From the NCBI GenBank assembly GCA_041665145.1, contig JBAYJK010000001.1:165629-229628 (forward strand): DNA of 64,000 nucleotides. The letters are read 5' to 3'. This stretch comes from Patescibacteria group bacterium (GTDB lineage: Bacteria > Patescibacteriota > Microgenomatia > UBA1406). A program made the translations under genes and the position numbers. The notes under the pieces were generated by a model. The model was not told the DNA's origin, made no database searches, and worked only from the letters and a program-made list of their open reading frames with translations. Positions 697 to 57,160 of this stretch are shown here, in pieces (positions within the stretch are counted from its first letter, which is position 1; every line of letters begins with the position of its first letter).

Positions 697-734
697 CCCG
701 GGTATCGAATTGGTATTTTGTATAGAATGAGAGT

Positions 735-3702: not shown

Positions 3703-3703
3703 G

Positions 3704-3775: not shown

Positions 3776-3840
3776 GTTTACCTGTATACCAATTGTATCA
3801 CGCACCTCTATTGGGTTCTAGTCTTTGTTACAATAATTCA

Positions 3841-5604
3841 ATGTTTGCCGCAGGCATTATAACCGTATTGTCTTTGACCTCTTATATATCTTCCGTACTT
3901 TTAACTTATTTTGAAAAAGAATTTATTTTACGATGGGTCGCATTCGGGCTTTCTCTGGTTCCTGTTATTTTAACCGGGTTCTGGATGTTCTTAAAACTGG
4001 TAAGGGGAAAGATAAGTCCGCTATTCTTAAGATCTTTTTATACCCGCGACGTTCTGTTGAGTATCGGTTTGTTGATTATTGTTTTATCCGTTGCTGCCAC
4101 CTTGCGTTTTCTGTTTCTCGGTTCATATCCGTTTGTTTCCGTGGGCGATGAAGTACGTGACGGAGGGTTACATGCATTTGAGATTGCGACCGGATTGCGT
4201 ACGGAGATATTTTCATATGGGGTGTATGAATCGCACGGTTTGATTATTGCTACAGCAGTCAGCTTTCTCTATCGCATATTTCAACACTCTGTGTACTCTT
4301 TCAGAGTCGCAGCAGCGCTTGTCGGTATCGCGGATGTTTTTATTTTATATGTATTTCTTCATAAATCACTCAACAAGTGGACCGCTTTTTTTGCTGCATT
4401 GATTCTGGCATGTTTGCCGATACATCTATTCTATAGTCGCACAGAGATAGTGGTGATTTTCAGCAGTTTTTGGACGACAGTGATACTTCTTTCCATGTAC
4501 CTGATGATTACCAAAAAAACGACGGCATTCATTATCTGGGCCGGTACCATCCTGGGTTTTGTCGCAGGTTTTCATACTTCTGCACGAACTGTTGTTTTCG
4601 GCGCATGTCTCATACTGATAACGTTTCTGGGCTCATGGTTAACTCACGCATTAATCGCACATAAACGTCGGGCAATCCGGTTACTGCAGTGTGCGGGTTT
4701 TATATTTTTCTTTTTTGCTGGTTTTGGACCACGTATATTGTATTCACCTGTGCACATCTTTTTTCAGAGCAGATCACTTAATGTGCACTCGTCACAAGTA
4801 CGGCCCGGTGAGAATTGGATACAGCAAGTTACAGATATTTCCATAAGCCTGAAAGATACGTATATAGACTCGTTCCTGGTATATCTGCAAAACCCCACGC
4901 TTTCGCACTATCCCGATCATCGACCCATACTACCACCCTTACTTGCATTGTTTTTTTTAATCGGTCTAACGGTGGCGGTCCTGATACTTAACGGGAAAAT
5001 ATGGAAAATCGTGGCTTTCTTAACATTGCTTATTCCGTTCACAAACAGCGCAATGACCGAAGCCGTAAATAATGATCACCGTCTTGCCCCGATGTTTGTA
5101 TTTGCTTCGATACTGAGCGGAATCGGTGTATGGTTTGTGGTATTTCGTTCGAAAGGGTTGCGGTTCGTACAGTGGTTGCTCGGCGCTGTTATCGTGCTCT
5201 ACATTATGTTGCACGGCGTTATGTTTTTCGGCGATCAGCCGGCAAGTAAAGATCGATATGTGCGTGATTATTTAGGTATGCACTTAATATACCAGTTACA
5301 ACAGCAACCGAAAATGTACCAAGACAACCATATCTGTTTACGTGTAAATCCGGGGATGGCCGAGTATCTTAACTTCATCCATGTTCGTGAGCAGTTTAAC
5401 TATTTTATCCCGAAACTGTATTACGACGTAGCCGCATCCGATACCGCTGTTAAGCCTAATGAACTGTATGTCATGGCAGATTGTGCAAAAGACTTGGGCC
5501 TATATCAGACCTTTCGCATTTCGTGTAATAGTGCGTTTGATTTCCGTTGCCCGATTACAGAACCGCAGTATAAAGAGTTTATTCTTCACGTAGCCCGGTA
5601 TTAG
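3841..5604 (+). CDS. Polytopic membrane glycosyltransferase, GT39/ArnT/PMT_2-like
   Basis: There are at least 10 predicted TM helices and an early loop with a DE-containing motif (VGDEVRDGG). The start is set at ATG 3841, which lies 6 nt after an extended -10 (TGtTACAAT, 3826-3834). Confidence 0.55.
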   Translation: MFAAGIITVLSLTSYISSVLLTYFEKEFILRWVAFGLSLVPVILTGFWMFLKLVRGKISPLFLRSFYTRDVLLSIGLLIIVLSVAATLRFLFLGSYPFVSVGDEVRDGGLHAFEIATGLRTEIFSYGVYESHGLIIATAVSFLYRIFQHSVYSFRVAAALVGIADVFILYVFLHKSLNKWTAFFAALILACLPIHLFYSRTEIVVIFSSFWTTVILLSMYLMITKKTTAFIIWAGTILGFVAGFHTSARTVVFGACLILITFLGSWLTHALIAHKRRAIRLLQCAGFIFFFFAGFGPRILYSPVHIFFQSRSLNVHSSQVRPGENWIQQVTDISISLKDTYIDSFLVYLQNPTLSHYPDHRPILPPLLALFFLIGLTVAVLILNGKIWKIVAFLTLLIPFTNSAMTEAVNNDHRLAPMFVFASILSGIGVWFVVFRSKGLRFVQWLLGAVIVLYIMLHGVMFFGDQPASKDRYVRDYLGMHLIYQLQQQPKMYQDNHICLRVNPGMAEYLNFIHVREQFNYFIPKLYYDVAASDTAVKPNELYVMADCAKDLGLYQTFRISCNSAFDFRCPITEPQYKEFILHVARY

Positions 5605-6641: not shown

Positions 6642-7711
6642 AGTTCATATATTGAAAAACTTCTGCTGTTTTCGTCAAGAATTTCTATCTGACAATACAA
6701 AGCGATTGCCTTTTTACCTTTTAAAAGATTTTGTACAGAACCGATTTTTTCACCCCATTCGAAAACAAGTACATTACGAGGTTGCAGTAGTTTATTGATT
6801 TCAAGATTCTCCAGATCATCCTGATTCTCCGCACGATATAAATCAAAATGGTGGAACTTTGTGATAACTGAATGATTAGTAGTGTATTCATAGTAAAGCA
6901 CAAAAGTTGGCGAGACAACGTGTTCGGTATCTAGGTATTCGCCGATTCCTTGGGAGAAAACCGTCTTTCCGGCTCCTAAATTTCCCTGAAGTATTAAAAT
7001 AACCGGCATTTCGTGCGCCGCTTTCAAATACTTTGTAAGTAATGCAACAGCAAGTTGTTTAGTCTGACCGGCGGATACTGTTACCTTTCTCTCTATAAGT
7101 TTTAACTTCATGTCACCTTTTCTCAAAGTCGGCAAGGTGGATTCACTGAGATTCACGATGGTTGAAGGCAGGTTGTGCGGAAGCGTACCGTAATCAACGA
7201 TGAGATCAAGCAAGTTCTTTTTTGTATCCGAAAGAGTGTTAAGAAGCGCCTCAATCGAATAGTGTGGACCGCGGGCATGTATGTTAGCCGATGTTGCTGT
7301 GTATGGAAACGGCACAGTTTTTGAAAGCTGATGGAGAAACTCATAGTCCGGTATGCGTATCCCGAGAGTTTTGTCTTCTGCTTCCAATTGCGCGGATACG
7401 GTGTGGAGCGACGGTAATACTATAGTATATGCACCGGGAAGTATCATGTTCAGGGTCTGTTCCTGTTGTTTCGTCAGTGCAATATATTTTTTTGCATGAA
7501 CCAAGTCTTTCACCGCGATGGAAATTGCCTGACCGCGTGGTCGGTCCTTGAATGCCAGTAGCTTATTCACTGCCTTTTCCGAGTCCGCTCGTGCAGCAAG
7601 GCCGTACACTGTATCAGAAGGGAAAACGACCAGTCCATCGGTTAAAAGCGTTTTTTTAACTTCCTGTAATACTGAATTCCGATTGTTTGCGGTAAGCTGT
7701 ATGCGTCTCAT
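6638..7711 (-). CDS. tsaC/tsaE: Fusion of L-threonylcarbamoyladenylate synthase (TsaC/YrdC domain) and the t6A ATPase TsaE
   Basis: The N-terminal half has YrdC motifs (PSDTVYGLAA, KDRP, TSAN, PSTIV). The C-terminal half has TsaE motifs (GNLGAGKT, SPTF, HFDLYR, EWG). The start is set at ATG 7711, 7 nt after TATAAT (7719-7724, minus strand). Confidence 0.8.
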   Translation of the reverse strand: MRRIQLTANNRNSVLQEVKKTLLTDGLVVFPSDTVYGLAARADSEKAVNKLLAFKDRPRGQAISIAVKDLVHAKKYIALTKQQEQTLNMILPGAYTIVLPSLHTVSAQLEAEDKTLGIRIPDYEFLHQLSKTVPFPYTATSANIHARGPHYSIEALLNTLSDTKKNLLDLIVDYGTLPHNLPSTIVNLSESTLPTLRKGDMKLKLIERKVTVSAGQTKQLAVALLTKYLKAAHEMPVILILQGNLGAGKTVFSQGIGEYLDTEHVVSPTFVLYYEYTTNHSVITKFHHFDLYRAENQDDLENLEINKLLQPRNVLVFEWGEKIGSVQNLLKGKKAIALYCQIEILDENSRSFSIYEL

Positions 7712-7804
7712 GGGTAGTATTATACCAATCTGATGCTCTCCGGGATTTGACAAACGGGGCAAATTGCATTATTGTAGTAGTAATTATTTGTTTATTCATA
7801 ATCT

Positions 7805-8412: not shown

Positions 8413-8428
8413 GTTATAATCTTATCCT

Positions 8429-10618
8429 ATGGATACTCGTTTTGTGCCTAAAGAACAAGAAGAGCGAATATATTCTCTGTGGGAAAAAAGCGGTGCATTT
8501 GCGCCCGAATCGGGAAAACCGTACACCGTACTTATGCCTCCACCAAATGCCAATGCGTCACTGCATGCCGGACACGGTATGTATGTAGTTGACGATATTA
8601 TTACACGATGGAAACGTCTTCAAGGCTACGCATCTCTCTGGATTCCCGGACGCGATCACGCGGGATTTGAAACCCAGTACGTGTATGAAAAAAAGCTTGC
8701 CAAGGAAGGTAAGTCGCGGATGGATTTTGACAGACAAACACTCTACAACAACGTATTCCAATTTGTGAATGATAACTCCGGCCTTATTTTCCAGCAGTTT
8801 CGTCGGCTTGGTTTCCTCGCCGATTGGAAGCGTAGCGTCTTTACGCTTGATCCGCATGTCTTGAAGCGAGTATTTTTGACTTTTCAACAAATGGAGAAGG
8901 AAGGTTTAGTCTATCGTGATAATTACATCGTCAATTATTGTACGCACTGCGGCACGTCGCTTGCCGAGCTTGAGGTGTTACATGAGGAACGAATTGACCC
9001 ATTGTACTACATGAAATATGGCCCGTTTACTCTTGCAACAGTTCGTCCGGAAACAAAATTTGGTGACACGGCAGTTGCGGTGCACCCGAAAGATAAGCGG
9101 TATGCTCAATGGGTGGGAAAAGAGGTTGGGGTTGAAGGACTCTTGGGGAAATTCAAGATTAAGGTGATTGCTGACGAAATGGTGGATATGAAATTCGGAA
9201 CGGGAGTCGTGAAGGTAACACCGGCACACGACCCGAATGATTTTGAAACAGGAAAACGACACGGACTTGAAGTAAAACAGGTGATTGACCTGAATGGCCG
9301 GTTAAACCACTATGCCGGGCCATATGCCGGACTTAAAGTGAAGGAAGCACGGAAACGAATCGCGGAAGACATGGAAAAAAAAGGTTTGATGGAGAAAGTC
9401 GATACAAACTATCTGCATGCCGTGACTGTCTGCTACAAATGTAGGCATGATTTGGAGCCAATGGTTATGCCGAACTGGTTTATTAAAGTAAAAGATCTGA
9501 AACAACCGGTTATTAAAGTTGTGAAAGAAAACAAGGTAAAATTCCACCCGGCAAAGTATAAGAAACAAATACTGCAGTGGTTGGAGAATATGCACGATTG
9601 GCCGATCAGCCGACAAATTGCATGGGGTATACGCATTCCTGTTTGGTACAGTGTGACGGAAAATCCGGAAATGTTTGTAACATTTCTTAACAGAGATAAA
9701 CAGATAGTCACTCTGAAAGTAAAAGATGCTCTCTCTCAGTTTTCGTTTAATGAGATAGAATCGGGTCTTCAAAAAATCTCAGCGCCTAAAAATGCCGCAT
9801 ATATAGTCTCGGAAACAAAACCTGAGGGTGAATTTTTGCAGGAAACCGACACGTTGGATACATGGTTTTCTTCCGGTCAGTGGCCGCTGGTGACATTGAA
9901 GGACGACGAGTATCAGTCGCGTTTTCCGACAGACTTTATGGGGACACTTGCGGATATACTTAACTTCTGGGTGTCGCGCATGATTATGTTTTCTTTATAC
10001 ATTCGGAAAGAAGTGCCTTTCAAAAACGTATATCTTTGGTCTATGGTGGTCGATGGGAAAGGCCAAAAAATGAGCAAGAGCAAAGGCAACGTGATAAACC
10101 CGATGGATCTGGTGGATAAACACGGTGCAGATGCGTTTAGGGCAGCTCTGTTGTTTGGGGTTTCACAAGGAGGACGGGTACCCTTATCAGAAGATAAAGT
10201 GATCGCGATGCGTAACTTTGCCAACAAGATTTGGAATATCGGACGATTTATTGATATGAGTAAAAACTCGAAGTCCGAAATCCGAAATTCGAAACAAGAA
10301 CCAAATAGTGAAATCATCGAAAACTTGAAAAAGGAGTTTGGGGAATTGAAAAAGAAAACGGTTAAAAATATGAATAGCTACAAATTTTCCCAGGCATTTA
10401 ATGATCTTTATGAGTTCGTATGGCACCGATATGCCGATTTTTACATTGAGGCATTGAAAGAAGACTTGCGAAATGGTAACATAGAGACGTGGAATAGTTT
10501 GAAAACGGTATTGTGTGACTCGTTGAAGCTACTGCACCCGTTTATGCCGTTTGTTACTGAGGCGGTATATCAGGAATTGGAAGGTACAAAAGTTATGATT
10601 ATAAGTTCAACGCTTTAA
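8429..10618 (+). CDS. valS: Valyl-tRNA synthetase (short form, 729 aa)
   Basis: Has the class I motifs [13 protein letters not shown] (HIGH) and KMSKSKGN, plus the [10 protein letters not shown] ValRS signature. An extended -10 (TGtTATAAT, 8412-8420) sits 8 nt upstream of the ATG. Confidence 0.9.
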
Positions 10619-11629: not shown

Positions 11630-12438
11630 TTTTTCAAAGTAAAGAAAGACCTGTCTCCAATTTGAATTGGTATGGTCGTTTTGTAGCCTGAATATACTGC
11701 TGCAGCATGACTACTCTCTTGGTTCGAAGTAAACAGGGGTCTTAATACGTCGGTAGGAATTGATGCCACCTCTTTCATGGTATGTGCGTAGGCAAATAAT
11801 GACGCAGTTGTCGGAGCTCCTACGCAAGCACCAACACATGCCGAAAGATGCAACAACACGGCCAAATATTTTTCTGAAAGTTCAAATTTATCTGCCTCTG
11901 CGCTGAACGCTTGTAGAAGTCGTAGAGACTGAAAACTGTGTGCTGCAGTAAATTCGCGAGGAGACGCTTTTACCATAGGTGCTAAATACGGAGCTTCCAG
12001 ATTGTTTATGTATAAGACGTATCCCAATTGTATAAGGAAATCTGGACGTATTGTTTCAGGGATACCATCAAACCAGTTTTTGATTGCTTCAATTGTTTTT
12101 TTCCCTTCCCATATGCCGTTCGGCATAGTTCTCCGAAGCGGTGCGCAACAATCAGCCATTCTTTGAATTGTTAGCGCTTCGGCTGCTGAAAAGAATTCTG
12201 TTGCTGAAATTACTGCCTGCGCTGCGATACTTTGTTCGAGTGTTGGGGGGTTGTTCAACTGATCAACAACAAATCTTTGAGCTTCTTGTAAGTTTAGGTC
12301 AACCCCAAAACCCATAGGCAGAGCCAGTCCTTCAATTTTAATTACGCTACCTCGGGGAACAGTGAACTGGTTAAGTAATGCAGAAGTTTTTTTATAGTCT
12401 GTTCCCGGTTTAAGACTATAGAGATGCTCTAAAGACAT
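11626..12438 (-). CDS. Hypothetical protein (270 aa, no recognised family)
   Basis: The long ORF has a leaderless-type start, with TATAAT 5 nt upstream of the ATG on the minus strand. It contains the segment SACVGACVGAP. Confidence 0.5.
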   Translation of the reverse strand: MSLEHLYSLKPGTDYKKTSALLNQFTVPRGSVIKIEGLALPMGFGVDLNLQEAQRFVVDQLNNPPTLEQSIAAQAVISATEFFSAAEALTIQRMADCCAPLRRTMPNGIWEGKKTIEAIKNWFDGIPETIRPDFLIQLGYVLYINNLEAPYLAPMVKASPREFTAAHSFQSLRLLQAFSAEADKFELSEKYLAVLLHLSACVGACVGAPTTASLFAYAHTMKEVASIPTDVLRPLFTSNQESSHAAAVYSGYKTTIPIQIGDRSFFTLKN

Positions 12439-12508
12439 ATGGGATTATACCACAAAACTATAGGACACTAAAACCATTAGTCCATTATGTATGGTATTAT
12501 GTATCTAT

Positions 12509-13246
12509 ATGGAACTTAAAGGCAAAAAATTTTGGGATACCATTGCTCCGACATTCGTTAACGAATCAACCTTCAGCAGAAAATATGTGTTTGTACCCCA
12601 GTTAATAAAGATTCTTGGTAATGTTAAAAATAAGAAGATTTTCGAAATCGGTTGCGGACCGGGAAAAAATTTGATGATTTTTGCCCAAAAAGGGGCAATT
12701 TGTGCCGGGATAGATTATTCTGAGGACATGATCTCAGTCGCACGTCAGGAAGCCGAAAGAAAAAATGTGTACATAGACTATTCCGTTGTCGACGCACTAA
12801 ATCTCAAAAGTGTTACCGGCACATTTGATTTTGTGCTGATTGCTAACTTCCTGATATTTTTGAAGGGTAAAACAAATGTAGAGCGTGTTTTAAAGCATGC
12901 TGCACGATTATTAAGTCCTACCGGGAAGCTTGTTATCGGAGAACCGCATCCGGCCTTCGATTACTACATGAGAACCCACCTAAACGAGAATAAATTTGAT
13001 TATTTTACGAGCGGAATGTCGTATCAATTCTCCATGGATTTACCTTCAGGCAAATATTCATCGCACGCGTACCGCATAACGCTCGAAGATTATGCGCGCG
13101 TACTTCGCGCATCGGGGTTTGGAATACGTAATATTTATGAGCCGAAACCTGTTGCAAAGGCGTTCACGGAGCAGCCGGAAACGGCAAAGCAAAAATCACA
13201 TTTCCCGCCGTATATTTTTTTTGAATGCACGAAAGCTCAGTTTTGA
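12509..13246 (+). CDS. Class I SAM-dependent methyltransferase
   Basis: Has motif I EIGCGPGKN and a post-I acidic residue (GIDYS). The start is set at ATG 12509, 8 nt after TGgTATTAT. Confidence 0.75.
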   Translation: MELKGKKFWDTIAPTFVNESTFSRKYVFVPQLIKILGNVKNKKIFEIGCGPGKNLMIFAQKGAICAGIDYSEDMISVARQEAERKNVYIDYSVVDALNLKSVTGTFDFVLIANFLIFLKGKTNVERVLKHAARLLSPTGKLVIGEPHPAFDYYMRTHLNENKFDYFTSGMSYQFSMDLPSGKYSSHAYRITLEDYARVLRASGFGIRNIYEPKPVAKAFTEQPETAKQKSHFPPYIFFECTKAQF

Positions 13247-14652
13247 GCACCTATATTTCTGAGTCTATCAGAAACTCTTTCCTTGCCGATTATTTCCATT
13301 CCCTCGAATAACGGGGCAGTGACTTTCTGATTCGAAAGCGCAAAGCGGAGATCCATATAGAGTTTTACCGGTTTTACATTATGCTTGTTTGCGACATCTT
13401 CCGCAGTTTTGTAGATTTTGGTATGTGCCCATTGGTCCAATGAGTACAATGAATCTAATAAGTCCAATTTGACTAGCTTTAAAGTTTCCAGGGGAAATTC
13501 AATTTTGTCCGGTTGCTCAAATATAAACCGGACCAGTGGCCAATAATCAGAAAGCTTTTTCATTCGTGTTTGTACAAGTGGAATAGTTTTCTCTACAATC
13601 GCAGGGTCCAATTTTTTATCTTTGTACCTCTCCATATACTCCAACACTTTAGACTTTAAACTTTTTACTTTATACTTCCGTATGTACTCCCCGTTCATCC
13701 ATTCAAGCTTGGTTAAATCAAACTTGGGATTAATAGGGTCAAGATCCTTAAAGTCGAAAAGCCTAACAAACTCTTCAAAATCAAAAATCTCTTTTTGCTC
13801 CGGGTGGCTCCAACCGAGAAGTGCAATAAAGTTTAAGACTGCTTCCGGTAAATAACCCTGCTCCTGATACCAAGAAACACTAGCGTGACCGTTTCGCTTG
13901 GCCATTTTCGAACCATCCATGTTTGTGATCAGGGGAGTATGGGTCACGACAGGCATGTCCCAACCGAAATAATCGTAGAGCAGTTTATGTTTCGGATAAC
14001 TCGGTAGCCATTCCGGTCCACGAAGGATGTGTGTTGTTTCCATCAGGTGATCGTCAACAACAACTGCGAGATGATAAGTAGGGAACCCGTCAGTTTTAAG
14101 AATTACCTGATCATCAGTAAGTGATGAGTCGAAAGATACGTCGCCGCGAATGAGGTCATGCACGATGATTGTGGTATTTTCGGGAATCTTCATTCTGATA
14201 ACATATGGTTCTCCTTTTGCAATTCTTTCTTTTGATTCGGCGAGTGGAATATTTCGGCACTTTTTGTCATAAATAGAGGGCTTTTTTTCGAGCTGATTTT
14301 TTTTACGGACTTCATCTAGTCTCTCCGCGGTACAGAAACAATAATATGCATGATTCTTCTCTACAAGTTCAAGTGCATATTTCTTGTACAATTCTAGTCT
14401 CTCGGATTGTTTATATGGACCGTACTTTCCCGGATTCCGGGGACTTTCATCCTCGGTTAATTTGAACCAGTCAATCGATTCATAGATCTTGTTTTCCGCA
14501 CCTTCGACAAATCGTTTCTGGTCGGTGTCCTCTATGCGTATAAAAAACGTTCCATTATTTTTTGTTGCAAATGCCCGATCAAGCATCGCTTGATATACCG
14601 TTCCGATATGGGGAAAGCCTGTCGGAGAAGGGGCAATTCTTGTACGTACCAT
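13237..14652 (-). CDS. gltX: Glutamyl-tRNA synthetase
   Basis: Has RIAPSPTGFPHIGT (HIGH region) and SKMAKRNG (KMSKS). The start is set at ATG 14652, 6 nt after TATAAT (14659-14664, minus strand). The longer ORF to 14733 runs through repeat DNA. Confidence 0.9.
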   Translation of the reverse strand: MVRTRIAPSPTGFPHIGTVYQAMLDRAFATKNNGTFFIRIEDTDQKRFVEGAENKIYESIDWFKLTEDESPRNPGKYGPYKQSERLELYKKYALELVEKNHAYYCFCTAERLDEVRKKNQLEKKPSIYDKKCRNIPLAESKERIAKGEPYVIRMKIPENTTIIVHDLIRGDVSFDSSLTDDQVILKTDGFPTYHLAVVVDDHLMETTHILRGPEWLPSYPKHKLLYDYFGWDMPVVTHTPLITNMDGSKMAKRNGHASVSWYQEQGYLPEAVLNFIALLGWSHPEQKEIFDFEEFVRLFDFKDLDPINPKFDLTKLEWMNGEYIRKYKVKSLKSKVLEYMERYKDKKLDPAIVEKTIPLVQTRMKKLSDYWPLVRFIFEQPDKIEFPLETLKLVKLDLLDSLYSLDQWAHTKIYKTAEDVANKHNVKPVKLYMDLRFALSNQKVTAPLFEGMEIIGKERVSDRLRNIGAQN

Positions 14653-14678
14653 ATCTGTATTATACACATAATCATTTA

Positions 14679-14772: not shown

Positions 14773-14787
14773 TTGTATACTGAATGT

Positions 14788-15864
14788 ATGACTCTTACGG
14801 AACTTTCATATCAGTCGCGAATCATCGCAAAACTGGCGCTTTTGTTTGTCGGAGGAAGCCTGGTTTTCTATGTCATGATGCTGCTTATGATCCAACTTTT
14901 GCAGCGCCCACAAAGTGTGCATGTGACGTTTAAACCCGCATTCGGCAAACTTGAAGCACCGGCGTTTGAACAAGCTCAGCGACCGAAAGACTTGGATTTT
15001 GTTCTCGACACTGTTGACGGAACCCTTCCACAAACAACACCCTCAGGACAAATCTTTTTCATCCCCCAGAAGCAAGCAACTCTTTTATATTTAACGAGAG
15101 CAAATGCTCTGGCGCAGAGTTTCGGTATCGACACTGAAGAATATCCTCAACAAACGGTCGATGATTCATGGGTACGGTTTGCGACTCCGTCCGATGAGTT
15201 GAAAGTAAACACGAAGTATTTTCACTTTAATTACACAATGAACCCGACCACCGCATTGCAACAGTTAATTGAAACGACCCCTTCCGCAAAGTTTACGCAA
15301 CTTGAGGATCAATTTGTGCAAACTGCAAAAGACGCCCTACTTGCCCGTTCTGCATATACTCCTGACGTTGCGGCAGGAAAAACGAACATTGTTTACTTGC
15401 GGTACAATCTTGATGCAAAGCAGTTTTATCCTATCACCGCAGACGAGGTTCCGCAGGCAGTAAGAATCGACTTTTTCCGCAAGGACGAATTGTTCAGCGT
15501 AGTTTCCCCACAGTATTTTGTAAGCCAAAACTATGTGATTCTTGCGCCATTGACCAATACAGCAAGCGCTGTGGCGATGCAATACAAGAGTTATGACGTA
15601 CTCAGAGATACAACCGGCGATTATCCCCTCAAATCTGCCACGATTGCGTGGGACGAGCTGACGAGCGGGGAAGCGGCAATCATATCGTTGCAGGATAATC
15701 CGACTGGCACGATCAGAATAAAACAGATCTTTTTGGCCTATTACGATCCGGAATCATATCAAAAATATCTCCAACCGGTGTTTGTCTTTTTGGGAGATCA
15801 GAATTACGTCGGATATTTGCCCGCAGTTCAATCAGACTATCTTATTCAATTGAAGAGTAAGTAA
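14788..15864 (+). CDS. Hypothetical membrane-anchored protein (N-terminal TM helix, large extracytoplasmic part)
   Basis: The ORF has one N-terminal TM helix (LALLFVGGSLVFYVMMLLMIQLL). The start is set at ATG 14788, 6 nt after TATACT (14776-14781). Confidence 0.5.
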   Translation: MTLTELSYQSRIIAKLALLFVGGSLVFYVMMLLMIQLLQRPQSVHVTFKPAFGKLEAPAFEQAQRPKDLDFVLDTVDGTLPQTTPSGQIFFIPQKQATLLYLTRANALAQSFGIDTEEYPQQTVDDSWVRFATPSDELKVNTKYFHFNYTMNPTTALQQLIETTPSAKFTQLEDQFVQTAKDALLARSAYTPDVAAGKTNIVYLRYNLDAKQFYPITADEVPQAVRIDFFRKDELFSVVSPQYFVSQNYVILAPLTNTASAVAMQYKSYDVLRDTTGDYPLKSATIAWDELTSGEAAIISLQDNPTGTIRIKQIFLAYYDPESYQKYLQPVFVFLGDQNYVGYLPAVQSDYLIQLKSK

Positions 15865-16771: not shown

Positions 16772-18167
16772 TCGTTGATAGCCCCAATTCTAGTAACTGT
16801 TCGGTACTGGGTTCACTCGGGGCATCCATAACGGCAGTTTTTCCGCTCGAATTCATGGGGAAGGCAATAGCCTCTTTTAATGAATTCTGGCGGGACATTA
16901 TCATTACGTGCCGATCAAGACCGAGAGCAATCCCTCCGTGCGGAGGTGTTCCATAACCGAATGCATCGATAATATGTCCGACGCTTGCCGATGTTTCCTC
17001 GTTACTGTATCCCATAATGCGGTATGTTGCTTCCAGAATTTCGCTTTTATGTGCGCGTATGCTTCCCCCTCCTGCCTCATAGCCGTTACACACAAGATCA
17101 TATTGGGTAGTAGTAATCTCATCAACATGAGTTCCTGCAAGGTGCCATTCGAGGTGCTCGGGTATCGGCATGCTGAAAGGGTTGTGTGTGAAAGTCCATC
17201 CGCTTTTACCATCCGTAACTTCTGCCCGGTCCTGTTTGTCGACTTTCTTGAAAAAGGGGAAATTTATGACCCAAGCGAATGCCAAAACGCCGTCTGCTTT
17301 TTCCTGCTCAGATCTGAGATCAAATTTATCAGCCCCGAATTGCTTTATGGCATCGTTATAACTGAACACGGGAAACGTATCTTTTTGCAGCTTTCCTCCG
17401 GTGGCTTTAACCGCATTTTTGACGATCTCTTCGACCGTAGCCATTACATCCTCGCGATTCACGAAACTCATTTCGATATCAAGTTGCGTGTGTTCAAAAC
17501 CGCGATCCGCACGCAAATCCTCGTCCCGTATACAACGTGCAAATTGGAAGTACCGTTCGACTCCCGAGACCATCAGCAGTTGTTTATATTGTTGCGGCGA
17601 TTGAGGAAGTGCGTAAAATTTTCCGGGTTGCAATCGCGATGGAACCAGAAAATCCCGAGCCCCTTCTTTAGTTGCTTTTGTGAGCATAGGAGTCTCTACT
17701 TCAATAAACGACTTTTTTCCCAATTCACTTCTGAGAGCACGATAGTAGTCTGATCTTAATTTCAGTGTTTCCATCATCCGTGCTCTCCGTAAATCAAGAT
17801 AGCGATATTTCAGACGAAGCTCTTCATCAATTTCAAGACCATCGGTGTCGATAGGGAACGGAGGAGTTTTTGCATGGCTCAGAATATCGAGGGATTCCGC
17901 CTGTATTTCAATAGTACCTGTTGGAATATCTTTATTGATCAGTTTCTCCGGACGTTCTTTCACAAGACCGATGATATGAACAACATCTTCACTGCTCACG
18001 TCTCCGAGCGATTTGTCCCCGACAACCTGCACGATTCCCGTATGGTCTCGGATATCAAGAAAAACTAGCTTACCATGTTCGCGTTTGCTGAAAACCCACC
18101 CGAACAAATCAACTTTTTCGCCCGTGTGTTTCGCAAGGTCTTCGAAAAATATTTTTTTAGTATCCAT
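16755..18167 (-). CDS. aspS: Aspartyl-tRNA synthetase, bacterial type but lacking the GAD insertion domain
   Basis: Has the OB-fold N-terminus, motif 2 FRCIRDEDLRADRGFEHTQLDIEMSF and motif 3 GGIALGLDR. Only about 30 aa separate DKFDLRS and WVINFPFF, where the GAD domain normally sits. Confidence 0.9.
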   Translation of the reverse strand: MDTKKIFFEDLAKHTGEKVDLFGWVFSKREHGKLVFLDIRDHTGIVQVVGDKSLGDVSSEDVVHIIGLVKERPEKLINKDIPTGTIEIQAESLDILSHAKTPPFPIDTDGLEIDEELRLKYRYLDLRRARMMETLKLRSDYYRALRSELGKKSFIEVETPMLTKATKEGARDFLVPSRLQPGKFYALPQSPQQYKQLLMVSGVERYFQFARCIRDEDLRADRGFEHTQLDIEMSFVNREDVMATVEEIVKNAVKATGGKLQKDTFPVFSYNDAIKQFGADKFDLRSEQEKADGVLAFAWVINFPFFKKVDKQDRAEVTDGKSGWTFTHNPFSMPIPEHLEWHLAGTHVDEITTTQYDLVCNGYEAGGGSIRAHKSEILEATYRIMGYSNEETSASVGHIIDAFGYGTPPHGGIALGLDRHVMIMSRQNSLKEAIAFPMNSSGKTAVMDAPSEPSTEQLLELGLSTNARKK

Positions 18168-20298
18168 GTACACGGAATATGAAATTATTATTTGTTTGAT
18201 AAATAGGACTCCCTATTTTATAAAATTTCTTGTAATTTAGCGAGGGGTATTTGTCGCGTTCGAACTTGGAAACCACAATGTATTTGACATTGTACTTTTT
18301 TAAAATTGAACTGACGGTTGAAATGTCCTTTTCGTCGCTCTCGTAAATTTGCTGCACTTCCTGAGCACGAGGTCCGACAATGTCATACGATCCTCTCCAT
18401 AACCATTCGTGTACTGGCCATCCGACAATGGTAGGAATTCCGGTTTGTGCAGAAAATATATCGTAATCCGTGTACGAGTCCCCGTGAGCCTCAACTATTG
18501 CAAAGGGGTGATCGGGGTCTTTTAGGTTATTTAGGACGGTTATCATTTCCGAGACTTCCGGAAAAGACTCTTTTATCCAATGTGAGCCATCGAGTGTTTT
18601 GAATTTCAACTCACCGAAGTATGACGGGACCGAGAAAAACGGGTAAATGGATATTAAAAAAAGTGTGGGAACCATGATAAGAAGATATACGATGCGTTTC
18701 TTCAGTTTTACTATTCCATCGACGAACAGGGAATTGACGATTACGACGGCTGAAAGAACCGACATAATAATAAAGGCCTGATAACCAAGTTTGAACATGG
18801 TGTTCGCCCTGAAATGTGCCGGGTAAATATCTTTAAAATAGAAAAACTCGGAAAACATAGTCAACAGAATGGAATAAACAAAACCAAAAAAAATAAAATA
18901 CGTAATTTTATGGCTTGTCGATAGGGAGTCTTTGACTTTAAAAAAGGTGAATCGCAAGAAAGCCGCGAATTGAATCCAAAAGAACCCCCACAAAACTCCA
19001 AGCATCCATATGGGACTTGTTTGGCATTTGTCTTTTTCGAAAACAAACGGCCCGATGCGTTCTTTTTGTACAAGAAACGAAGGTGCGCAATTAACCCCCA
19101 ACGCACTCGCAAACGGTTTGAAACTGATCGAAAACGGCAAAGTAACTACGAGCGCGAGAAGAAGGACAGAAATGTAGTTGAGCAGCACATGTTTTATTGA
19201 ACGATATTTGATTACGGTAACAAAAAAGAACAGTGCCCCATAAACAAGATAATCGGTAGAGTTGGTCATATAAGCTATGCCGAGGGCAAGTATGATGAGT
19301 CCGTTCGTTATGAGATGGGTTTTCTTCTCAGTGTTGACGAGAAATACAATAAAAAGACTTAAAAGAAAAAGCACAAACGGTATATCGAGAACATGTCCAT
19401 GCAGATCTGAAACAACATATGAGTACGAAGGAAATTCGTGGATTGTATAGGGGATAAAACGAGTGGCATTTGGATACCAATAGGCTCCCGGGTTAAACCA
19501 TGAAATAATGTTCCAAAACGGAACAGGATTGTCATTTGGGTAGCCCTTTGTAAAGAGGTAGATGGTATGTAGATTACCTCCGAGATTTGTTATATATGCG
19601 GCAATGATACCGACGATAATGGCGTACCAGATCCGCCGGGGAGATTTGCTGTTGTCCAAAAACAAAAAAAGGTTGAATCCGATAGAAAAACAAATAGTTG
19701 TGCTGAGCGCAAATATCGTAGCGATCATCAGGTTGTATGTTACGGTGGGTGGCAGGTTGGTGAGACGCGTCATGAACGCAACAATGAAATGGCCGAAATA
19801 ATAGTAATTTATAGGAAAGGAAGTGTTCTGTGTTGCCGCAAACCACATGTCTTGGGGAGGTAAATATTTACTATTCAGGATGCTTTGAATAAATCCGAAA
19901 TCCATATATTTTTCCAGGCTATGAATTGACGGCTCGGTCCCTTTTATAAATGCCCAAAAGGCAAGCATCACAAAAAAGAAGACTTCATATAGAATAATGG
20001 TTTTGAGACTTGGACGATTAGCGGGCAGATACTTACGGGCAAGAACAATGACGATCAAAAATAAAAGCAAGACTACAAATATCGACTCCGTGGAAATGGT
20101 AAGTAATTTAAGCCGTGACAGAACAAATAGGGAGTATCCGCATATGCTGAGTGTGAGTAATCGATATATAGGATAACCTTTATCGGCGAACTTCTTGAAG
20201 ATTACTGATCCGAGGGGAAATGCGAGTAAACTGAGTACGAGCCACCCAACGTACCATATGCCGATAACGCTGAGCCAATACACAAACTGTGCAAACAT
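18157..20298 (-). CDS. DUF2298 / Chlor_Arch_YYY-domain polytopic membrane protein (putative glycosyltransferase)
   Basis: Has many TM helices and the eponymous motif FPINYYYFGHF. The start is set at ATG 20298, 7 nt after TATAAT (20306-20311, minus strand). Confidence 0.75.
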   Translation of the reverse strand: MFAQFVYWLSVIGIWYVGWLVLSLLAFPLGSVIFKKFADKGYPIYRLLTLSICGYSLFVLSRLKLLTISTESIFVVLLLFLIVIVLARKYLPANRPSLKTIILYEVFFFVMLAFWAFIKGTEPSIHSLEKYMDFGFIQSILNSKYLPPQDMWFAATQNTSFPINYYYFGHFIVAFMTRLTNLPPTVTYNLMIATIFALSTTICFSIGFNLFLFLDNSKSPRRIWYAIIVGIIAAYITNLGGNLHTIYLFTKGYPNDNPVPFWNIISWFNPGAYWYPNATRFIPYTIHEFPSYSYVVSDLHGHVLDIPFVLFLLSLFIVFLVNTEKKTHLITNGLIILALGIAYMTNSTDYLVYGALFFFVTVIKYRSIKHVLLNYISVLLLALVVTLPFSISFKPFASALGVNCAPSFLVQKERIGPFVFEKDKCQTSPIWMLGVLWGFFWIQFAAFLRFTFFKVKDSLSTSHKITYFIFFGFVYSILLTMFSEFFYFKDIYPAHFRANTMFKLGYQAFIIMSVLSAVVIVNSLFVDGIVKLKKRIVYLLIMVPTLFLISIYPFFSVPSYFGELKFKTLDGSHWIKESFPEVSEMITVLNNLKDPDHPFAIVEAHGDSYTDYDIFSAQTGIPTIVGWPVHEWLWRGSYDIVGPRAQEVQQIYESDEKDISTVSSILKKYNVKYIVVSKFERDKYPSLNYKKFYKIGSPIYQTNNNFIFRVHGY

Positions 20299-20305
20299 AG
20301 CCCTT

Positions 20306-20317
20306 ATTATATACAAT
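20306..20317. promoter_or_regulatory. Back-to-back -10 boxes of two divergent, apparently leaderless genes
   Basis: The sequence is ATTATATACAAT. TATAAT on the minus strand (20306-20311) is 7 nt from ATG 20298, and TACAAT on the plus strand (20312-20317) is 7 nt from ATG 20325. Confidence 0.6.
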
Positions 20318-20324
20318 TAGAATT

Positions 20325-21329
20325 ATGCGCGTTGGTATACATAACAAAGGAATACTGGATTTATCCGTAGTTCGTGGAGTCGGAAGTTATGTAACAATGA
20401 TGCTTGAAGCAATCGGACAATATGGTGAACGCTATGATTTGAAATTGGATCAATCAAATTATGATGTACTTGTTCATCCGGGTTTCTTTCCATTTGTAAC
20501 TCCGGAACTTAATAAAAAGAAAAAAAACGCCGTTGTTATCCATGATCTTATACCAATTAAATACCCACAGTTTTTTCCAGCCGGCTGGAGGGGAATTTGG
20601 AAGTGGTTCAAAAATAGTCAGGCATTGTTGGGGAGCGATGCCTTTATTACGGATTCGCATGTGGTACAGGCAGAAATAGCACGGCGGTTGTCCGTACCGA
20701 TTGCGAATATTGATGTTGTATATCCAGCGGCAAAAAAAGTATTTTATAGCCCGAAAAAGCTGAAAGAAAACCTCATTCAGAGAGCAGCGTTACCTGCAAA
20801 ATATGCGTTATATGTGGGAGATGTAACGTGGAACAAGAATCTCGAAACTCTTGCACGGGCTGTGCAGGAGGCTAATATCACTCTTGTTCTTGTAGGTAAG
20901 GCATTAGCTCAGCGGGATACAATCTCTCATCCATGGCAAAGAAGTTTCAGAAAATTTCTCTCGCTAACTGAAGGTGATAAACGGTTTATCTTTCTCGGAT
21001 ACGTTCCTGATGAGCAAGTAGTTTCGTTGTATCAACATGCTGTCTTTACAATCCTACCCTCATATGACGAAGGATTTGGTCTGCCGTGGTTGGAAGCCGC
21101 ACTCTCAGGGTCTCCGGTTATCGTCTCGAAAATACCGGTCATTGAAGAAATAACGCAAGGCGTGTCCGTCTATTGTGATCAGACAGATGTGCATGCGATG
21201 GCACAAACAATGGGTGAAATGTACTTTAATAGGGTAGAAGTAGATCTTTCCGCACAATTGAAGCAGGCGAAGAAATTTTCTCAAGAAGCGTTCGTTAAAA
21301 GTCTTGCCCACTGTCTTCACAAACTGTAA
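20325..21329 (+). CDS. Glycosyltransferase family 4 (GT-B, GT1/GT4)
   Basis: Has the C-terminal EGFGLPWLEAALSGSPVIVS motif (E(x7)E type). Confidence 0.8.
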   Translation: MRVGIHNKGILDLSVVRGVGSYVTMMLEAIGQYGERYDLKLDQSNYDVLVHPGFFPFVTPELNKKKKNAVVIHDLIPIKYPQFFPAGWRGIWKWFKNSQALLGSDAFITDSHVVQAEIARRLSVPIANIDVVYPAAKKVFYSPKKLKENLIQRAALPAKYALYVGDVTWNKNLETLARAVQEANITLVLVGKALAQRDTISHPWQRSFRKFLSLTEGDKRFIFLGYVPDEQVVSLYQHAVFTILPSYDEGFGLPWLEAALSGSPVIVSKIPVIEEITQGVSVYCDQTDVHAMAQTMGEMYFNRVEVDLSAQLKQAKKFSQEAFVKSLAHCLHKL

Positions 21330-26989: not shown

Positions 26990-27607
26990 ATGAAAATCGA
27001 ACATGCATATGTGCCTGTACCAGCAGGACTACAGCCTTGGCAGATTGAGCCGGGGTTACTTTCAGTGTTTAACAATCAAGCCGCTATTCCGGTCAGCAAC
27101 AATCTGTCTATCGCCAGGCCGTTAGTGCAACATACAGATAATATTCTGGCACTTCTTAATGGTGAGGCTGCCCTTGTCCCCGTGCAAGGGGCGGAGATTG
27201 CGCAGACCATTGCAGCCGGTCTGAACCTTATCGCGTACGATCATGCGGCAGGTGCGGTTGTCGGGTACCAATCGATTGGTCTCTGGAATCAACTAGGCCT
27301 GCTTGAATTACGGTCGGCAAAGGTTTTGCCGAACTACCGGGGTAACGGGCTCAACACCGTTATGAAACAGCTTGCAATATCAATTGGTATGCAACAGTTT
27401 CCGGGACGGAAATTTTTGGGATTTACCGAAGCAGAGAGCAAGAGTCGGGGAATATTATCCAAACTTGGGTTCCAAGAGATGACAATGCAACAAGTTGCTG
27501 CGAAATGGCAGGAGTTGTCGTCAATTTGTCCCGACCAATGCTTTATTAAAACAGGCCATCCGTGTGGCTGTAAAGTTTATATACTTGATCCATATGAAAC
27601 CAAATAA
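26990..27607 (+). CDS. GNAT-like acetyltransferase (weak assignment)
   Basis: The C-terminal half has a VLPNYRGNGLNTVMKQL segment resembling the GNAT acetyl-CoA (R/Q-x-x-G-x-G/A) motif. Confidence 0.4.
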   Translation: MKIEHAYVPVPAGLQPWQIEPGLLSVFNNQAAIPVSNNLSIARPLVQHTDNILALLNGEAALVPVQGAEIAQTIAAGLNLIAYDHAAGAVVGYQSIGLWNQLGLLELRSAKVLPNYRGNGLNTVMKQLAISIGMQQFPGRKFLGFTEAESKSRGILSKLGFQEMTMQQVAAKWQELSSICPDQCFIKTGHPCGCKVYILDPYETK

Positions 27608-27608
27608 T

Positions 27609-28679
27609 ATGTCAAAAACAATAACCGAGGTTTTTATGGATTTAGTGCACATACCATCACCGAGCGGCAACGAAAAAAAAGTAGCTGAATATGTGACTCA
27701 ATTTCTGAAACCGCTTGGTTGGAACACATTCATTGACGATAAAGGGAATGTTATCGCACGTACTTCGCACCGTACCGTAAAACCGGTGGTATTTGTTGCT
27801 CACATGGATACGGTTCAAAAACCGGGTGAGATTGTGCGTCCGCAATTTGATGGCATACATTTTACCAGCGATGGTACTACGATTTTGGGAGCAGATGATA
27901 AAGCGAGTGTTGCTGTACTTCTTGCCTTGGCAAGAAGTTTTTATGAAAGCAAAACTGAACCTCCTGTCGTGCTCATATTTACCACCCGAGAAGAGGCGGG
28001 AACGATGAGTTCGTCTGCTCTTTCTTTTGAGGAGATAAATCCACTATTTATCTGTAATGTTGATGGATCAAATGCTTTGGGGACAATTGACTATCGATCA
28101 TATGGTCAAACAATATTCGAGTTGTCGATCCACGGCAAAGCAGCGCATGCCGCTATTGAGCCAGAGAAAGGAGTACACGCTATTTCGATTCTCGCTCGGA
28201 TAGTAAGTGGTTTGCGTATGGGCAAGTCAAAGTCACGAACCCTAAATATTGGCAGTATTTCTGGGGGCGGGGCAACTAACATTGTTCCTGCTACTGCATC
28301 TGTACGTGGCGAGGTGCGGAGTTATAGACAAGCTATGATCAAATCAACACTTGATAAGATCCTGCAGGATGCAACCCGCATAGCGAAAAAATATGGTGCT
28401 ACTGCTCGACTAAAGATAGTAGAGAACACTCCACCATTTATTGGGGCTAAGTCATCTTTTGCGGTAAGTCGTGTTGTAAATGCACTGAAGAAATCCGGCG
28501 TTGCTCCGATAGTACAGAGTGCGACCTATACAAGCGATTCAGGGTATTTGTCTGCTTCGGGGTATCCGACTGTAACGCTTTGTAAGGGTGGATTAAATCC
28601 CCATAGCACGAGCGAATCGATTACTCTGGTGGAGATGGAGATGCTTCTTGAAATTGTGCAAAAGATAATTATTGATTGA
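27609..28679 (+). CDS. M20-family metallopeptidase/amidohydrolase (PepT/ArgE-like)
   Basis: Has IPSPSGNEKKVAEY, VAHMDTV, GADDKASVA, TTREEAG and a dimerisation-domain pattern. The start is moved to ATG 27609 because the track ORF from 27495 overlaps the upstream gene. Confidence 0.8.
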   Translation: MSKTITEVFMDLVHIPSPSGNEKKVAEYVTQFLKPLGWNTFIDDKGNVIARTSHRTVKPVVFVAHMDTVQKPGEIVRPQFDGIHFTSDGTTILGADDKASVAVLLALARSFYESKTEPPVVLIFTTREEAGTMSSSALSFEEINPLFICNVDGSNALGTIDYRSYGQTIFELSIHGKAAHAAIEPEKGVHAISILARIVSGLRMGKSKSRTLNIGSISGGGATNIVPATASVRGEVRSYRQAMIKSTLDKILQDATRIAKKYGATARLKIVENTPPFIGAKSSFAVSRVVNALKKSGVAPIVQSATYTSDSGYLSASGYPTVTLCKGGLNPHSTSESITLVEMEMLLEIVQKIIID

Positions 28680-28704
28680 CAAGTTTAGTACGTACTAGTA
28701 TACT
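28676..28704 (+). promoter_or_regulatory. Sigma70-type promoter TTGACA-17-TATACT driving a leaderless TrpR-family gene
   Basis: TTGACA at 28676-28681, a 17-nt spacer and TATACT at 28699-28704. The ATG at 28713 is 8 nt downstream. Confidence 0.7.
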
Positions 28705-28710
28705 AGTACG
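28691..28710. promoter_or_regulatory. TrpR-type operator: perfect 20-bp palindrome CGTACTAGTATACTAGTACG
   Basis: The core GTACTAGTATACTAGTAC differs from the idealised E. coli trp operator GTACTAGTTAACTAGTAC only at the two central positions. It covers the -10 box and the predicted transcription start. Confidence 0.8.
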
Positions 28711-28712
28711 GT

Positions 28713-28973
28713 ATGAAAAACAAAGCAGAAATCGAACAGCTGGTACATGTATTACTTAATCTTAGCAACAAGGAAAGAATGGTGGATTTTCTAGAGGGTA
28801 TTTTGACACCTTCAGAACTTGAGGAAGTTGCTCATAGGCTGCAGATAGTAAAAATGTTGAAACTAGGTGTACCGCAAAAAAATATAGCTAAGGAATTGGG
28901 TGTCGGTATTGCAACCGTTACCCGGGGATCTCGTGAGTTGAAGCAAAACAGATTTTCGTATCTTTGGCAATAA
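28713..28973 (+). CDS. TrpR-family (Trp repressor / YerC-YecD-like) DNA-binding protein, 86 aa
   Basis: Has the HTH region NIAKELGVGIATVTRGSRELK (compare E. coli TrpR ELGAGIATITRGSNSLK). The preceding helix motif is LTPSELEEVAHRLQIV. Confidence 0.85.
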   Translation: MKNKAEIEQLVHVLLNLSNKERMVDFLEGILTPSELEEVAHRLQIVKMLKLGVPQKNIAKELGVGIATVTRGSRELKQNRFSYLWQ

Positions 28974-30710: not shown

Positions 30711-31014
30711 AGTAACCTCCGCACCCGCGATAAAGCCAATGGGCAACGCGGGTGACGGTTGCAGTTGATGTTTTTAATTTTTTAGCAATTTCCTTATATG
30801 AACTGCCGGTAAAAATAAGGCGGGCCATCTCGAGACGGTTGGCAAACTCTTCTATTTCAGCAGGGGTTAGCATGTCCCGCATAAGCGCTGCCGCTGCAGC
30901 CGTATCTTTCAATGAAGCAAATGCTCGTGTTAAATTTTCCTCCTTAATGTTACGGGGAGAAAAGTGCTCTGACTGTTTAAATTTACTAACAACACCTGTC
31001 CGCGCTTTTACCAT
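30676..31014 (-). CDS. TrpR-family / YerC-YecD-like regulator, copy 2 (112 aa)
   Basis: Has LTPAEIEEFANRLEMARL and the HTH EIAKKLKTSTATVTRVAHWL. The leaderless-type start has TGaTATAGT 6 nt upstream on the minus strand. Its 3' end overlaps the IUNH copy 1 gene by 35 nt (convergent). Confidence 0.8.
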   Translation of the reverse strand: MVKARTGVVSKFKQSEHFSPRNIKEENLTRAFASLKDTAAAAALMRDMLTPAEIEEFANRLEMARLIFTGSSYKEIAKKLKTSTATVTRVAHWLYRGCGGYFNFLTKQKSNS

Positions 31015-31033
31015 ATTTCTACTATATCACAGT

Positions 31034-31169: not shown

Positions 31170-31198
31170 ATTTACCGCAACAAAATAGAAATTTATCA

Positions 31199-34839: not shown

Positions 34840-34853
34840 TTATCATAGTTAAA

Positions 34854-38632: not shown

Positions 38633-38648
38633 CGGAACCTACATTATA

Positions 38649-38963
38649 TCATCCCCAGAATATTTTTGTCGCAATCTGTGCAAGCCAATATGAAAGTGCC
38701 AGCATAATAATCCCGACTATGGAATTTGTTATGCGGGATTTTGCTTTTTTAATAAGTTCGGGACTGTTCCAGCTGCGTGCCATATCGAAACCCGACCACA
38801 GGAGATATATAAATAAGACAAAAAGAGCAAGCGGAAAAACTGCTTGCATGACAACGGTCACCACGTCTCCGATAGTGGCAAATTTTGCAGGCAGGGGTCC
38901 GTTAAGGGTAAATGAACCCTGCGTCCCGTTAATCGTTAAAGCTTGTGCCAACAGATGCTTCAT
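38649..38963 (-). CDS. Small two-TM protein resembling CPR 'T4SS pilin' (TrbC/VirB2-like)
   Basis: The pattern is ...LFIYLLWSGFDMARSWNSPELIKKAKSRITNSIVGIIMLALSYW, i.e. TM, G.PE..KKAK..I.N.I.G, TM. The start at ATG 38963 is 6 nt after TACAAT (minus strand). Confidence 0.55.
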   Translation of the reverse strand: MKHLLAQALTINGTQGSFTLNGPLPAKFATIGDVVTVVMQAVFPLALFVLFIYLLWSGFDMARSWNSPELIKKAKSRITNSIVGIIMLALSYWLAQIATKIFWG

Positions 38964-38990
38964 ATCCACATTGTATAACTTAATAATTAT

Positions 38991-39019
38991 TTGACAAGCA
39001 CTCTAAATTTCTTCATAAT
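38991..39019 (+). promoter_or_regulatory. Promoter TTGACA-17-CATAAT for leaderless clpC, sharing its -35 region with the divergent minus-strand promoter
   Basis: TTGACA at 38991-38996 and CATAAT at 39014-39019, with ATG 39026 6 nt downstream. On the minus strand, TTGTCA (38992-38997) -16- TACAAT (38970-38975) drives the pilin-like gene. Confidence 0.65.
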
Positions 39020-39025
39020 GGTCAC

Positions 39026-44356: not shown

Positions 44357-44408
44357 AGTGTCATTATAGGCGGAATGCATGTTTGTGTCAAATTGGTATA
44401 ATATGGTT

Positions 44409-49067: not shown

Positions 49068-49075
49068 TACAAAGC

Positions 49076-49473: not shown

Positions 49474-49501
49474 TTGCATTTAGCAGTTTTTCGTGTATAA
49501 T
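49474..49501 (+). promoter_or_regulatory. Promoter TTGCAT-16-TATAAT for leaderless rpsO
   Basis: TTGCAT at 49474-49479 and TATAAT at 49496-49501. ATG 49509 is 7 nt downstream. Confidence 0.6.
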
Positions 49502-49508
49502 CCATCCC

Positions 49509-57112: not shown

Positions 57113-57160
57113 GCAGCTATTATATAGCAACAATTTCTGAGTTTGTATATAATTGGTCAC

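Follow-up and report, generated by a model that had tools for sequence, protein, structure and literature searches.

Introduction

Among the genome classes distinguished by GeneMarkS-2, group C contains the leaderless-rich genomes of the Actinobacteria and Deinococcus-Thermus, for example M. tuberculosis and D. deserti, in which a Pribnow box lies 6-8 nt before the first genes of operons and is absent before internal genes, and for which the leaderless fraction is quoted as 25-50% (PMC6028130). The window described here, which is the whole stretch of 64,000 nucleotides that was analysed from an uncultured, ultrasmall bacterium, resembles these genomes (PMC6028130) in that its -10 boxes lie 6-8 nt before the starts of operon heads and mostly not before internal genes. 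It differs from them in belonging to the Patescibacteria/CPR lineage, in its moderate GC content (0.42), and in that its genes lack any detectable Shine-Dalgarno (SD) signal, whereas the other genes of group C carry SD sites; the proportion of heads with the arrangement is also higher (about 60% as against 25-50%), although the window provides a sample of only 28 heads.

Two further classes share some of these properties. With group B of the Bacteroidetes and Cyanobacteria the window has in common that SD sites are nearly absent and that A-rich sequence precedes leadered and internal genes, but the group B motif stands before every gene and does not act as a promoter, whereas the window motif has the character of a promoter and is found at operon heads. 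The archaeal genomes of group D have a similarly high share of leaderless transcription units, but their TATA box is about 26 nt upstream, rather than a bacterial -10 hexamer at 6-8 nt.

The window also contains a very short divergent intergenic region that invites comparison with the bidirectional promoters described by the Grainger laboratory in E. coli and other prokaryotes, in which the transcription start sites (TSSs) are 10, 18 or 23 bp apart and the -10 elements are symmetrical and shared or overlapping (PMC12825309). The likeness to these promoters (PMC12825309) is in the divergent transcription from one short AT-rich block and in the mutually exclusive binding of polymerase, which would be expected here too; the differences are that the predicted TSSs are 27 bp apart (20298 and 20325), that the hexamers (20306-11 and 20312-17) abut without overlapping, and that the TSSs would coincide with start codons. 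Leaderless initiation is already known as a mechanism in Actinobacteria, Deinococcus and archaea, and what appears to be new is its probable occurrence in a CPR lineage, for which we found no report of leaderless initiation in the literature searched.

Results

Two abutting -10 boxes in a 26-bp divergent region

The region lies between a gene for a DUF2298 membrane protein and a gene for a GT4 glycosyltransferase, which are transcribed away from each other:

18157..20298 (-): DUF2298 membrane-protein gene, 713 aa (Pfam PF10060; also 713 aa according to the gene callers)
20306..20311 (-): TATAAT, the -10 box for the DUF2298 gene, separated from ATG 20298 by 7 nt
20312..20317 (+): TACAAT, the -10 box for the GT4 gene, separated from ATG 20325 by 7 nt
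20325..21329 (+): GT4 glycosyltransferase gene, 334 aa, putatively starting without a leader at ATG 20325 (Pfam, gene calls)

When the coordinates are re-derived from the sequence, the minus-strand ATG is read as CAT at 20296-20298 and the plus-strand ATG begins at 20325, and the 26 nt between them consist of 7 nt (a-gccctt), ATTATA, TACAAT and 7 nt (tagaatt). The earlier note had described this gap as two abutting -10 boxes, each 7 nt from its start codon, and this is exact. The putative leaderless start of the DUF2298 gene is thus ATG 20298, instead of the TTG at 20316 that opens the longest reading frame. Neither promoter has a -35 match or a canonical TGn extension, so that the strength of both depends on the -10 hexamers alone, and because the hexamers abut, the upstream promoter DNA of each gene sits within the other gene.

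The region would represent the most compact form of the arrangement, two back-to-back leaderless promoters with abutting -10 hexamers, and is close to the shortest possible such pair in which the hexamers do not overlap; competition between the promoters would be expected, with one RNA polymerase accommodated at a time. Five more divergent pairs in the window have leaderless-type promoters on both strands (ATGs 12438/12509, 14652/14788, 38963/39026, 44356/44409 and 57112/57161), the gaps measuring no more than 48-135 nt. Compact divergent arrangements of this kind thus recur in the window, and the 20299-20324 region is not unique.

A catalogue of -10 boxes next to start codons

Each of the 20 -10/ATG geometries listed in the earlier note was re-derived and found in its place. 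Together with three that were absent from that list, one of them doubtful, the geometries beyond the focal pair are as follows, with the gap counted between hexamer and ATG:

723..737 (+): tkt, TAGAAT (723-728), gap 6 nt, ATG 735 (gene calls; Transketolase_N)
2671-2676: box of a HIT gene, a doubtful case, absent from the earlier list
3829..3843 (+): PMT_2/GT39 gene, TGtTACAAT (box 3829-3834), gap 6 nt, ATG 3841 (587 aa according to the callers)
7709..7724 (-): sua5-tsaE, TGgTATAAT (box 7719-7724), gap 7 nt, ATG 7711 (alternative start; callers choose TTG 7762)
8415..8431 (+): valS, TGtTATAAT (box 8415-8420), gap 8 nt, ATG 8429 (gene calls; Pfam)
12436..12449 (-): 270-aa gene, TGgTATAAT, gap 5 nt, ATG 12438 (gene calls)
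12495..12511 (+): methyltransferase gene, TGgTATTAT (box 12495-12500), gap 8 nt, ATG 12509 (alternative start; callers choose ATG 12491)
14650..14664 (-): gltX, TATAAT (14659-14664), gap 6 nt, ATG 14652 (gene calls; Pfam catalytic domain)
14776..14790 (+): 358-aa gene, TATACT, gap 6 nt, ATG 14788 (gene calls; orthologues)
27580..27596 (+): M20/M28 peptidase gene, TATACT (27580-27585), gap 8 nt, ATG 27594 (absent from the earlier list)
28676..28715 (+): TrpR-1, TTGACA, 17 bp spacer, TATACT (28699-28704), gap 8 nt, ATG 28713 (consensus scan)
31012..31026 (-): TrpR-2, TGaTATAGT, gap 6 nt, ATG 31014 (gene calls)
38630..38648 (-): ftsH, TGaTATAAT, gap 10 nt, ATG 38632 (a weak case, which would give a short leader)
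38961..38997 (-): pilin-like gene, TTGTCA, 16 bp spacer, TACAAT, gap 6 nt, ATG 38963 (gene calls; consensus scan)
38991..39028 (+): clpC, TTGACA, 17 bp spacer, CATAAT, gap 6 nt, ATG 39026 (gene calls; consensus scan)
44354..44391 (-): 180-aa RmlC-like gene, TTGACA, 17 bp, TATAAT, gap 6 nt, ATG 44356 (12/12 consensus match)
44397..44411 (+): GT2 gene, TGgTATAAT, gap 6 nt, ATG 44409 (265 aa according to the callers; domain offset)
49063..49078 (+): nifU, TGgTATAAT (box 49063-49068), gap 7 nt, ATG 49076 (absent from the earlier list)
49496..49511 (+): rpsO, TATAAT, gap 7 nt, ATG 49509 (gene calls; Pfam)
57110..57124 (-): 202-aa gene, TATAAT, gap 6 nt, ATG 57112 (gene calls)
57148..57163 (+): ftsK, TATAAT, gap 7 nt, ATG 57161 (gene calls)

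The ftsH case is weak not only for its gap of 10 nt; its start is 16 nt past the preceding gene. Also weak are sua5-tsaE and the methyltransferase gene, for which both callers prefer a different start. The promoter of the M20/M28 peptidase gene sits within the 3' end of the gene before it, and just beyond the 3' end of the window fusA has TGgTAGTAT 7 nt before its ATG.

Two observations on individual genes are recorded here. The product of rpsO (49509-49949, plus strand), ribosomal protein S15, is extended at its N terminus by about 60 lysine-rich residues ahead of the Pfam S15 domain (residues 62-137). At 3391-3735 on the minus strand a public pipeline calls a 114-aa reading frame that overlaps a tRNA-Met gene (3703-3775, minus strand) and has no family match; this is probably a spurious call.

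Enrichment at the heads of transcription units

The window lies on the 438-kb ENA contig ERZ27249449 k141_362789, which is also represented in SRR18595301 and SRR6484324. Two independent public gene-calling runs on this contig supplied the gene starts, and a gene was counted as the head of a transcription unit if its neighbour was divergent or the gap was 35 nt or more. With these independent calls a near-consensus -10 box lies 5-8 nt before the start at 17 of 28 heads, whereas at other offsets only 0-3 heads have one, and shuffling of the upstream 40 nt (5000 runs) yields a mean of 1.0±1.0 heads and a maximum of 6. Operon-internal genes have the box in 4 of 30 cases, significantly less often than the heads (p=2.8e-4). 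The motif is missing from 11 of the 28 heads, at least one of which is clearly leadered (the T-box leader described below).

A scan of -10 hexamers against ATGs over the whole window and on both strands shows enrichment with a sharp peak at 6-7 nt: a near-consensus -10 hexamer is followed by an ATG opening a reading frame of at least 80 codons 11 times at a spacing of 6 nt and 8 times at 7 nt, as against about once at each other spacing. A start-agnostic version of the test considered 53 non-overlapping long ORFs and admitted any in-frame ATG within the first 40 codons; a strong -10 hexamer was found at 5-8 nt in 13 of the 53, and in one at each of three control offsets (Fisher p=9e-4). The same pipeline gave 0 of 39 in a control stretch of E. 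coli and 2 of 40 in a stretch of the AT-rich B. anthracis plasmid pXO1, which is the background level, and both of these have a clear SD peak. A stretch of the MP1 plasmid of Deinococcus radiodurans gave 1 of 39, the expected signal being missed by the strict -10 definition; this result says little, as the plasmid is rich in GC and would probably call for a looser motif.

The boxes have the properties of promoters

The earlier note had described a TG extension as being frequently present, and when the boxes are aligned on the hexamer a TGn is indeed found in 10 of the 23. A perfect TTGACA is positioned at 17 bp in three promoters (TrpR-1, clpC and the 180-aa gene); for the pilin-like gene the -35 element reads TTGTCA and the spacing is 16 bp. 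An independent scan of the 28-48 kb segment for the sigma-70 consensus places the promoters of TrpR-1, clpC and the 180-aa gene as its top three (12/12 matches for the 180-aa gene, 11/12 for each of the other two) and also lists those of the pilin-like gene and ftsH.

The canonical distance from the -10 hexamer to +1 is 6 nt. The modal gap in the window is likewise 6 nt, so that the first base of the ATG would be at +1, while in 12 of the 23 cases the gap is 7-10 nt. A pyrimidine immediately precedes the ATG in 20 of 21 box-bearing cases as against 20 of 35 other genes (p=0.002), and with +1 on the A this would give the usual Y-1/R+1 start dinucleotide.

Which ATGs are the starts

Leaderless mRNAs use a 5'-terminal AUG as their start, and GUG and UUG work poorly; all 23 candidate leaderless starts in the window are ATG. 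The two gene-calling pipelines choose 18 of the 20 listed starts, the exceptions being the methyltransferase gene (ATG 12491) and sua5-tsaE, where TTG 7762 is the sole TTG start chosen by the callers and the ATG alternative has the better box. Protein domains extend close to the proposed starts. The Pfam GluRS catalytic domain of gltX begins at residue 28 when counted along the 498-aa ORF; with ATG 14652 as the start, this residue becomes the first of a 471-aa product. Domains begin at residue 9 in tkt (position 4 of the Transketolase_N profile), 14 in valS and 6 in nifU, and that of GT2 at about residue 8, counted from ATG 44409. The suggestion that many starts in the ORF track needed correction is right, as illustrated by four genes, which move from 14733 to 14652, from 20316 to 20298, from 44452 to 44356 and from 57172 to 57112.

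Shine-Dalgarno sequences are at background level

No positional peak of SD 4-mers was found before the genes of the window. Assuming a canonical anti-SD tail, duplexes of -4.4 kcal/mol or lower are available to 10% of 58 genes as against 8% in shuffles, and among the genes that are not leaderless the figures, on the same assumption, are 14% and 10%; in the same test E. coli reaches 62% as against 30% in shuffles. The absence of SD sequences from box-bearing starts, also claimed in the earlier note, is in keeping with these values. In the part of the contig beyond the 3' end of the window (L089, 13782-21778), the ATGs of rpsL, rpsG, rpoB and rpoC are preceded by no SD site and by no -10 box. 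Regular expressions that match four universal 16S segments and tolerate 2 mismatches at most found no 16S gene in any fetched locus. An anti-SD motif is reported to be missing from some Parcubacteria (Tsurumaki 2022, PMC9297842), which is the closest related finding in the literature searched.

Roughly half of the operon-internal genes overlap the preceding gene, by 4, 8, 11, 14, 17 or 20 nt; of the others, the majority start within about 15 nt of it. This overlapping or abutting arrangement suggests that internal genes are translated by translational coupling.

Leadered genes and possible operators

Some of the heads with long gaps are genuinely leadered for regulation, as illustrated by a T-box leader (Rfam RF00230) at 34849-35099 on the plus strand, which scores 62.6 bits (E=2e-13 in a 441-nt search), below the gathering score. 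The surrounding region (34822-35143, plus strand) contains the GGTGGTACCGCG box and a terminator/antiterminator and is preceded by the promoter TTGACA-16-CATAGT. The regulated gene (35275-36294, 339 aa) has no Pfam or NCBIfam match, and downstream of it is a LOG-like TIGR00725 gene.

The two Trp_repressor-family genes are associated with symmetrical sequences. A perfect 18-bp palindrome, GTACTAGTATACTAGTAC, at 28692-28709 (plus strand) overlaps the -10 box of TrpR-1 and ends 4 nt short of the start, and differs little from GTACTAGTTAACTAGTAC, the E. coli trp operator consensus. The position over the -10 box and the near match to the trp operator suggest that this first family member could be an autoregulated leaderless trpR-like gene. 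Upstream of TrpR-2 (30990-31060, minus strand) there is a 12-bp inverted repeat, CACTCCATTTAA-acaa-TTAAATGGAGTG, at the place expected for a -35 element, which may act as an operator or form a hairpin.

Ahead of the PRTase-HAD gene at 31257 there is a gap of 242 nt, in which the segment 31063-31256 (plus strand) contains a promoter TTGACA-17-TAATAT with TGn and a GC-rich hairpin with a T-run (31198-31216). An Rfam search of this gap gave no significant match. The gene is leadered, with a possible attenuator.

The geometry is conserved in related genomes

The best matches of LysS are in Patescibacteria MAGs, with 70% identity to UBA1370 and 58-60% to Dojkabacteria. In 19 close loci the -10 peak at 6-8 nt is present at 60 of 331 ORFs as against 13 at control offsets (p=4e-9), and in 58 other Patescibacteria loci at 111 of 832 as against 25 (p=4e-15); 65 of 77 CPR loci exceed their own control. 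By class, the proportions with box and control are 28% and 1% for Microgenomates-type loci, 11% and 3% for the Parcubacteria type, and 12% and 3% for Saccharibacteria. The TGn extension accompanies 40% of start-proximal boxes across the CPR as against 7.7% of all such hexamers (p=5e-28), and the gaps are most often 6 nt (67), followed by 7 nt (51) and 8 nt (34).

The LysS-anchored loci include no DUF2298/GT4 pair, and orthologues of the focal pair were obtained by anchoring a further scan on DUF2298. In each of the four DUF2298 orthologues that are closest (L091-L094, 53-59% identity) the distance between TATAAT and the ATG is exactly 7 nt despite unrelated spacers, and three of the four keep a divergent gap of 29-32 nt to the GT4 orthologue. 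Two of the GT4 orthologues also keep the geometry, with TATAAT in L093 and TATATT in L091, both at a gap of 6 nt. Elsewhere the arrangement is retained in 9 of 13 orthologues of the 358-aa gene and in 12 of 34 of gltX, some of the other gltX orthologues having short leaders, so that conservation of the geometry is accompanied by some turnover.

Discussion

Alternative explanations

Since TAnnnT is common, with about 40 occurrences at each offset before any ATG, and two of the listed genes need a start that the gene callers passed over, it might be supposed that AT-rich intergenic DNA and a free choice among in-frame ATGs are sufficient to yield apparent -10 boxes by chance or bias. This explanation is contradicted by the start-agnostic and positional controls, by the composition-preserving shuffles and by the AT-rich pXO1 control, as well as by the agreement of independent callers on most of the starts and the retention of the geometry across orthologues; we find it extremely improbable, and reject it as unsupported. 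The motif could instead be a non-SD ribosome-binding or translation-enhancer element of leadered mRNAs, modelled on the AT-rich group B motif of Bacteroidetes, with the true promoters further upstream. In a genome lacking SD sites leadered genes must use some other translation signal, the distance of the motif from the start is like that of a ribosome-binding site, and there are A-rich upstream regions at genes that are not leaderless. However, the group B motif precedes internal genes too (PMC6028130), whereas the motif here is specific to heads (17 of 28 as against 4 of 30). Neither TGn nor a correctly spaced -35 TTGACA has a role in translation, and both are present, which together with the Y-1/R+1 dinucleotide and the modal gap of 6 nt leads us to reject this reading too; divergent gaps of 26, 48 and 52 bp, moreover, are too short to hold another promoter outside coding sequence. 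We consider an enhancer element of this kind very unlikely.

A different question is whether the promoters are real but the mRNAs not strictly leaderless, having leaders of 1-5 nt or a start codon further downstream. The distance from -10 to TSS in bacteria varies by a few nucleotides (PMC12825309; PMC12641261), more than half of the gaps are longer than 6 nt, and those of 8-10 nt (valS, TrpR-1, M20/M28 and ftsH) may give leaders of 1-4 nt. Such near-leaderless transcripts seem unlikely to be the general case, given that the modal gap is 6 nt both in the window and in the CPR loci, that transcription from the A agrees with the Y-1/A+1 dinucleotide, and that in gltX, nifU, tkt, valS and GT2 Pfam domains begin at residues 1-14, too early to allow a start further downstream; leaders of 5 nt or less are in any case conventionally counted as leaderless.

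A model for initiation

We therefore favor leaderless initiation, and think it likely, from the arrangement of the sequences, that sigma-70-type promoters are placed so as to produce leaderless mRNAs on which translation begins at a 5'-terminal AUG. Each of the sequence-level predictions of leaderless initiation that we examined in the window was borne out. The promoters would be of the ordinary sigma-70 type, some with -35 and -10 elements, some with an extended TGn -10 and some with a -10 alone, and transcription would begin at the first base of the start codon, or no more than 1-2 nt away from it. The resulting mRNAs would have no 5' leader and no SD site, and by analogy with characterised leaderless mRNAs the ribosome and initiator tRNA would bind directly to the 5'-terminal AUG. 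The mode was called dominant in the earlier note; this description is appropriate for transcription-unit heads, about 60% of which would use it, but not for all genes, for which the proportion is roughly 36-40% and no majority. The remaining, leadered genes would also be without SD sites.

Implications for gene annotation and for the CPR

Gene starts in thousands of CPR metagenome-assembled genomes have been predicted with SD-tuned models. With a leaderless, SD-free architecture the longest-ORF or SD-guided start is often wrong, as in about ten cases in the window. The geometry would also offer a simple rule for locating promoters and operon heads in organisms that are mostly unculturable, and would be useful for the design of expression cassettes in the few genetically tractable CPR strains.

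Whether leaderless initiation and near-absent SD use are a trait of the whole phylum Patescibacteria (CPR), strongest in Microgenomates- and Dojkabacteria-like lineages, in which about 25-28% of long ORFs start at a -10-proximal ATG, is a proposal for which we judge the case to be evenly balanced. If it is correct, the CPR would join Actinobacteria and Deinococcus-Thermus as a third large bacterial lineage rich in leaderless genes, and the trait might be linked to the reduced ribosomes of these organisms. The finding bears on how start codons are selected by the reduced CPR ribosome, one CPR subgroup having been reported without an anti-SD (PMC9297842), and on the idea that leaderless initiation is ancestral.
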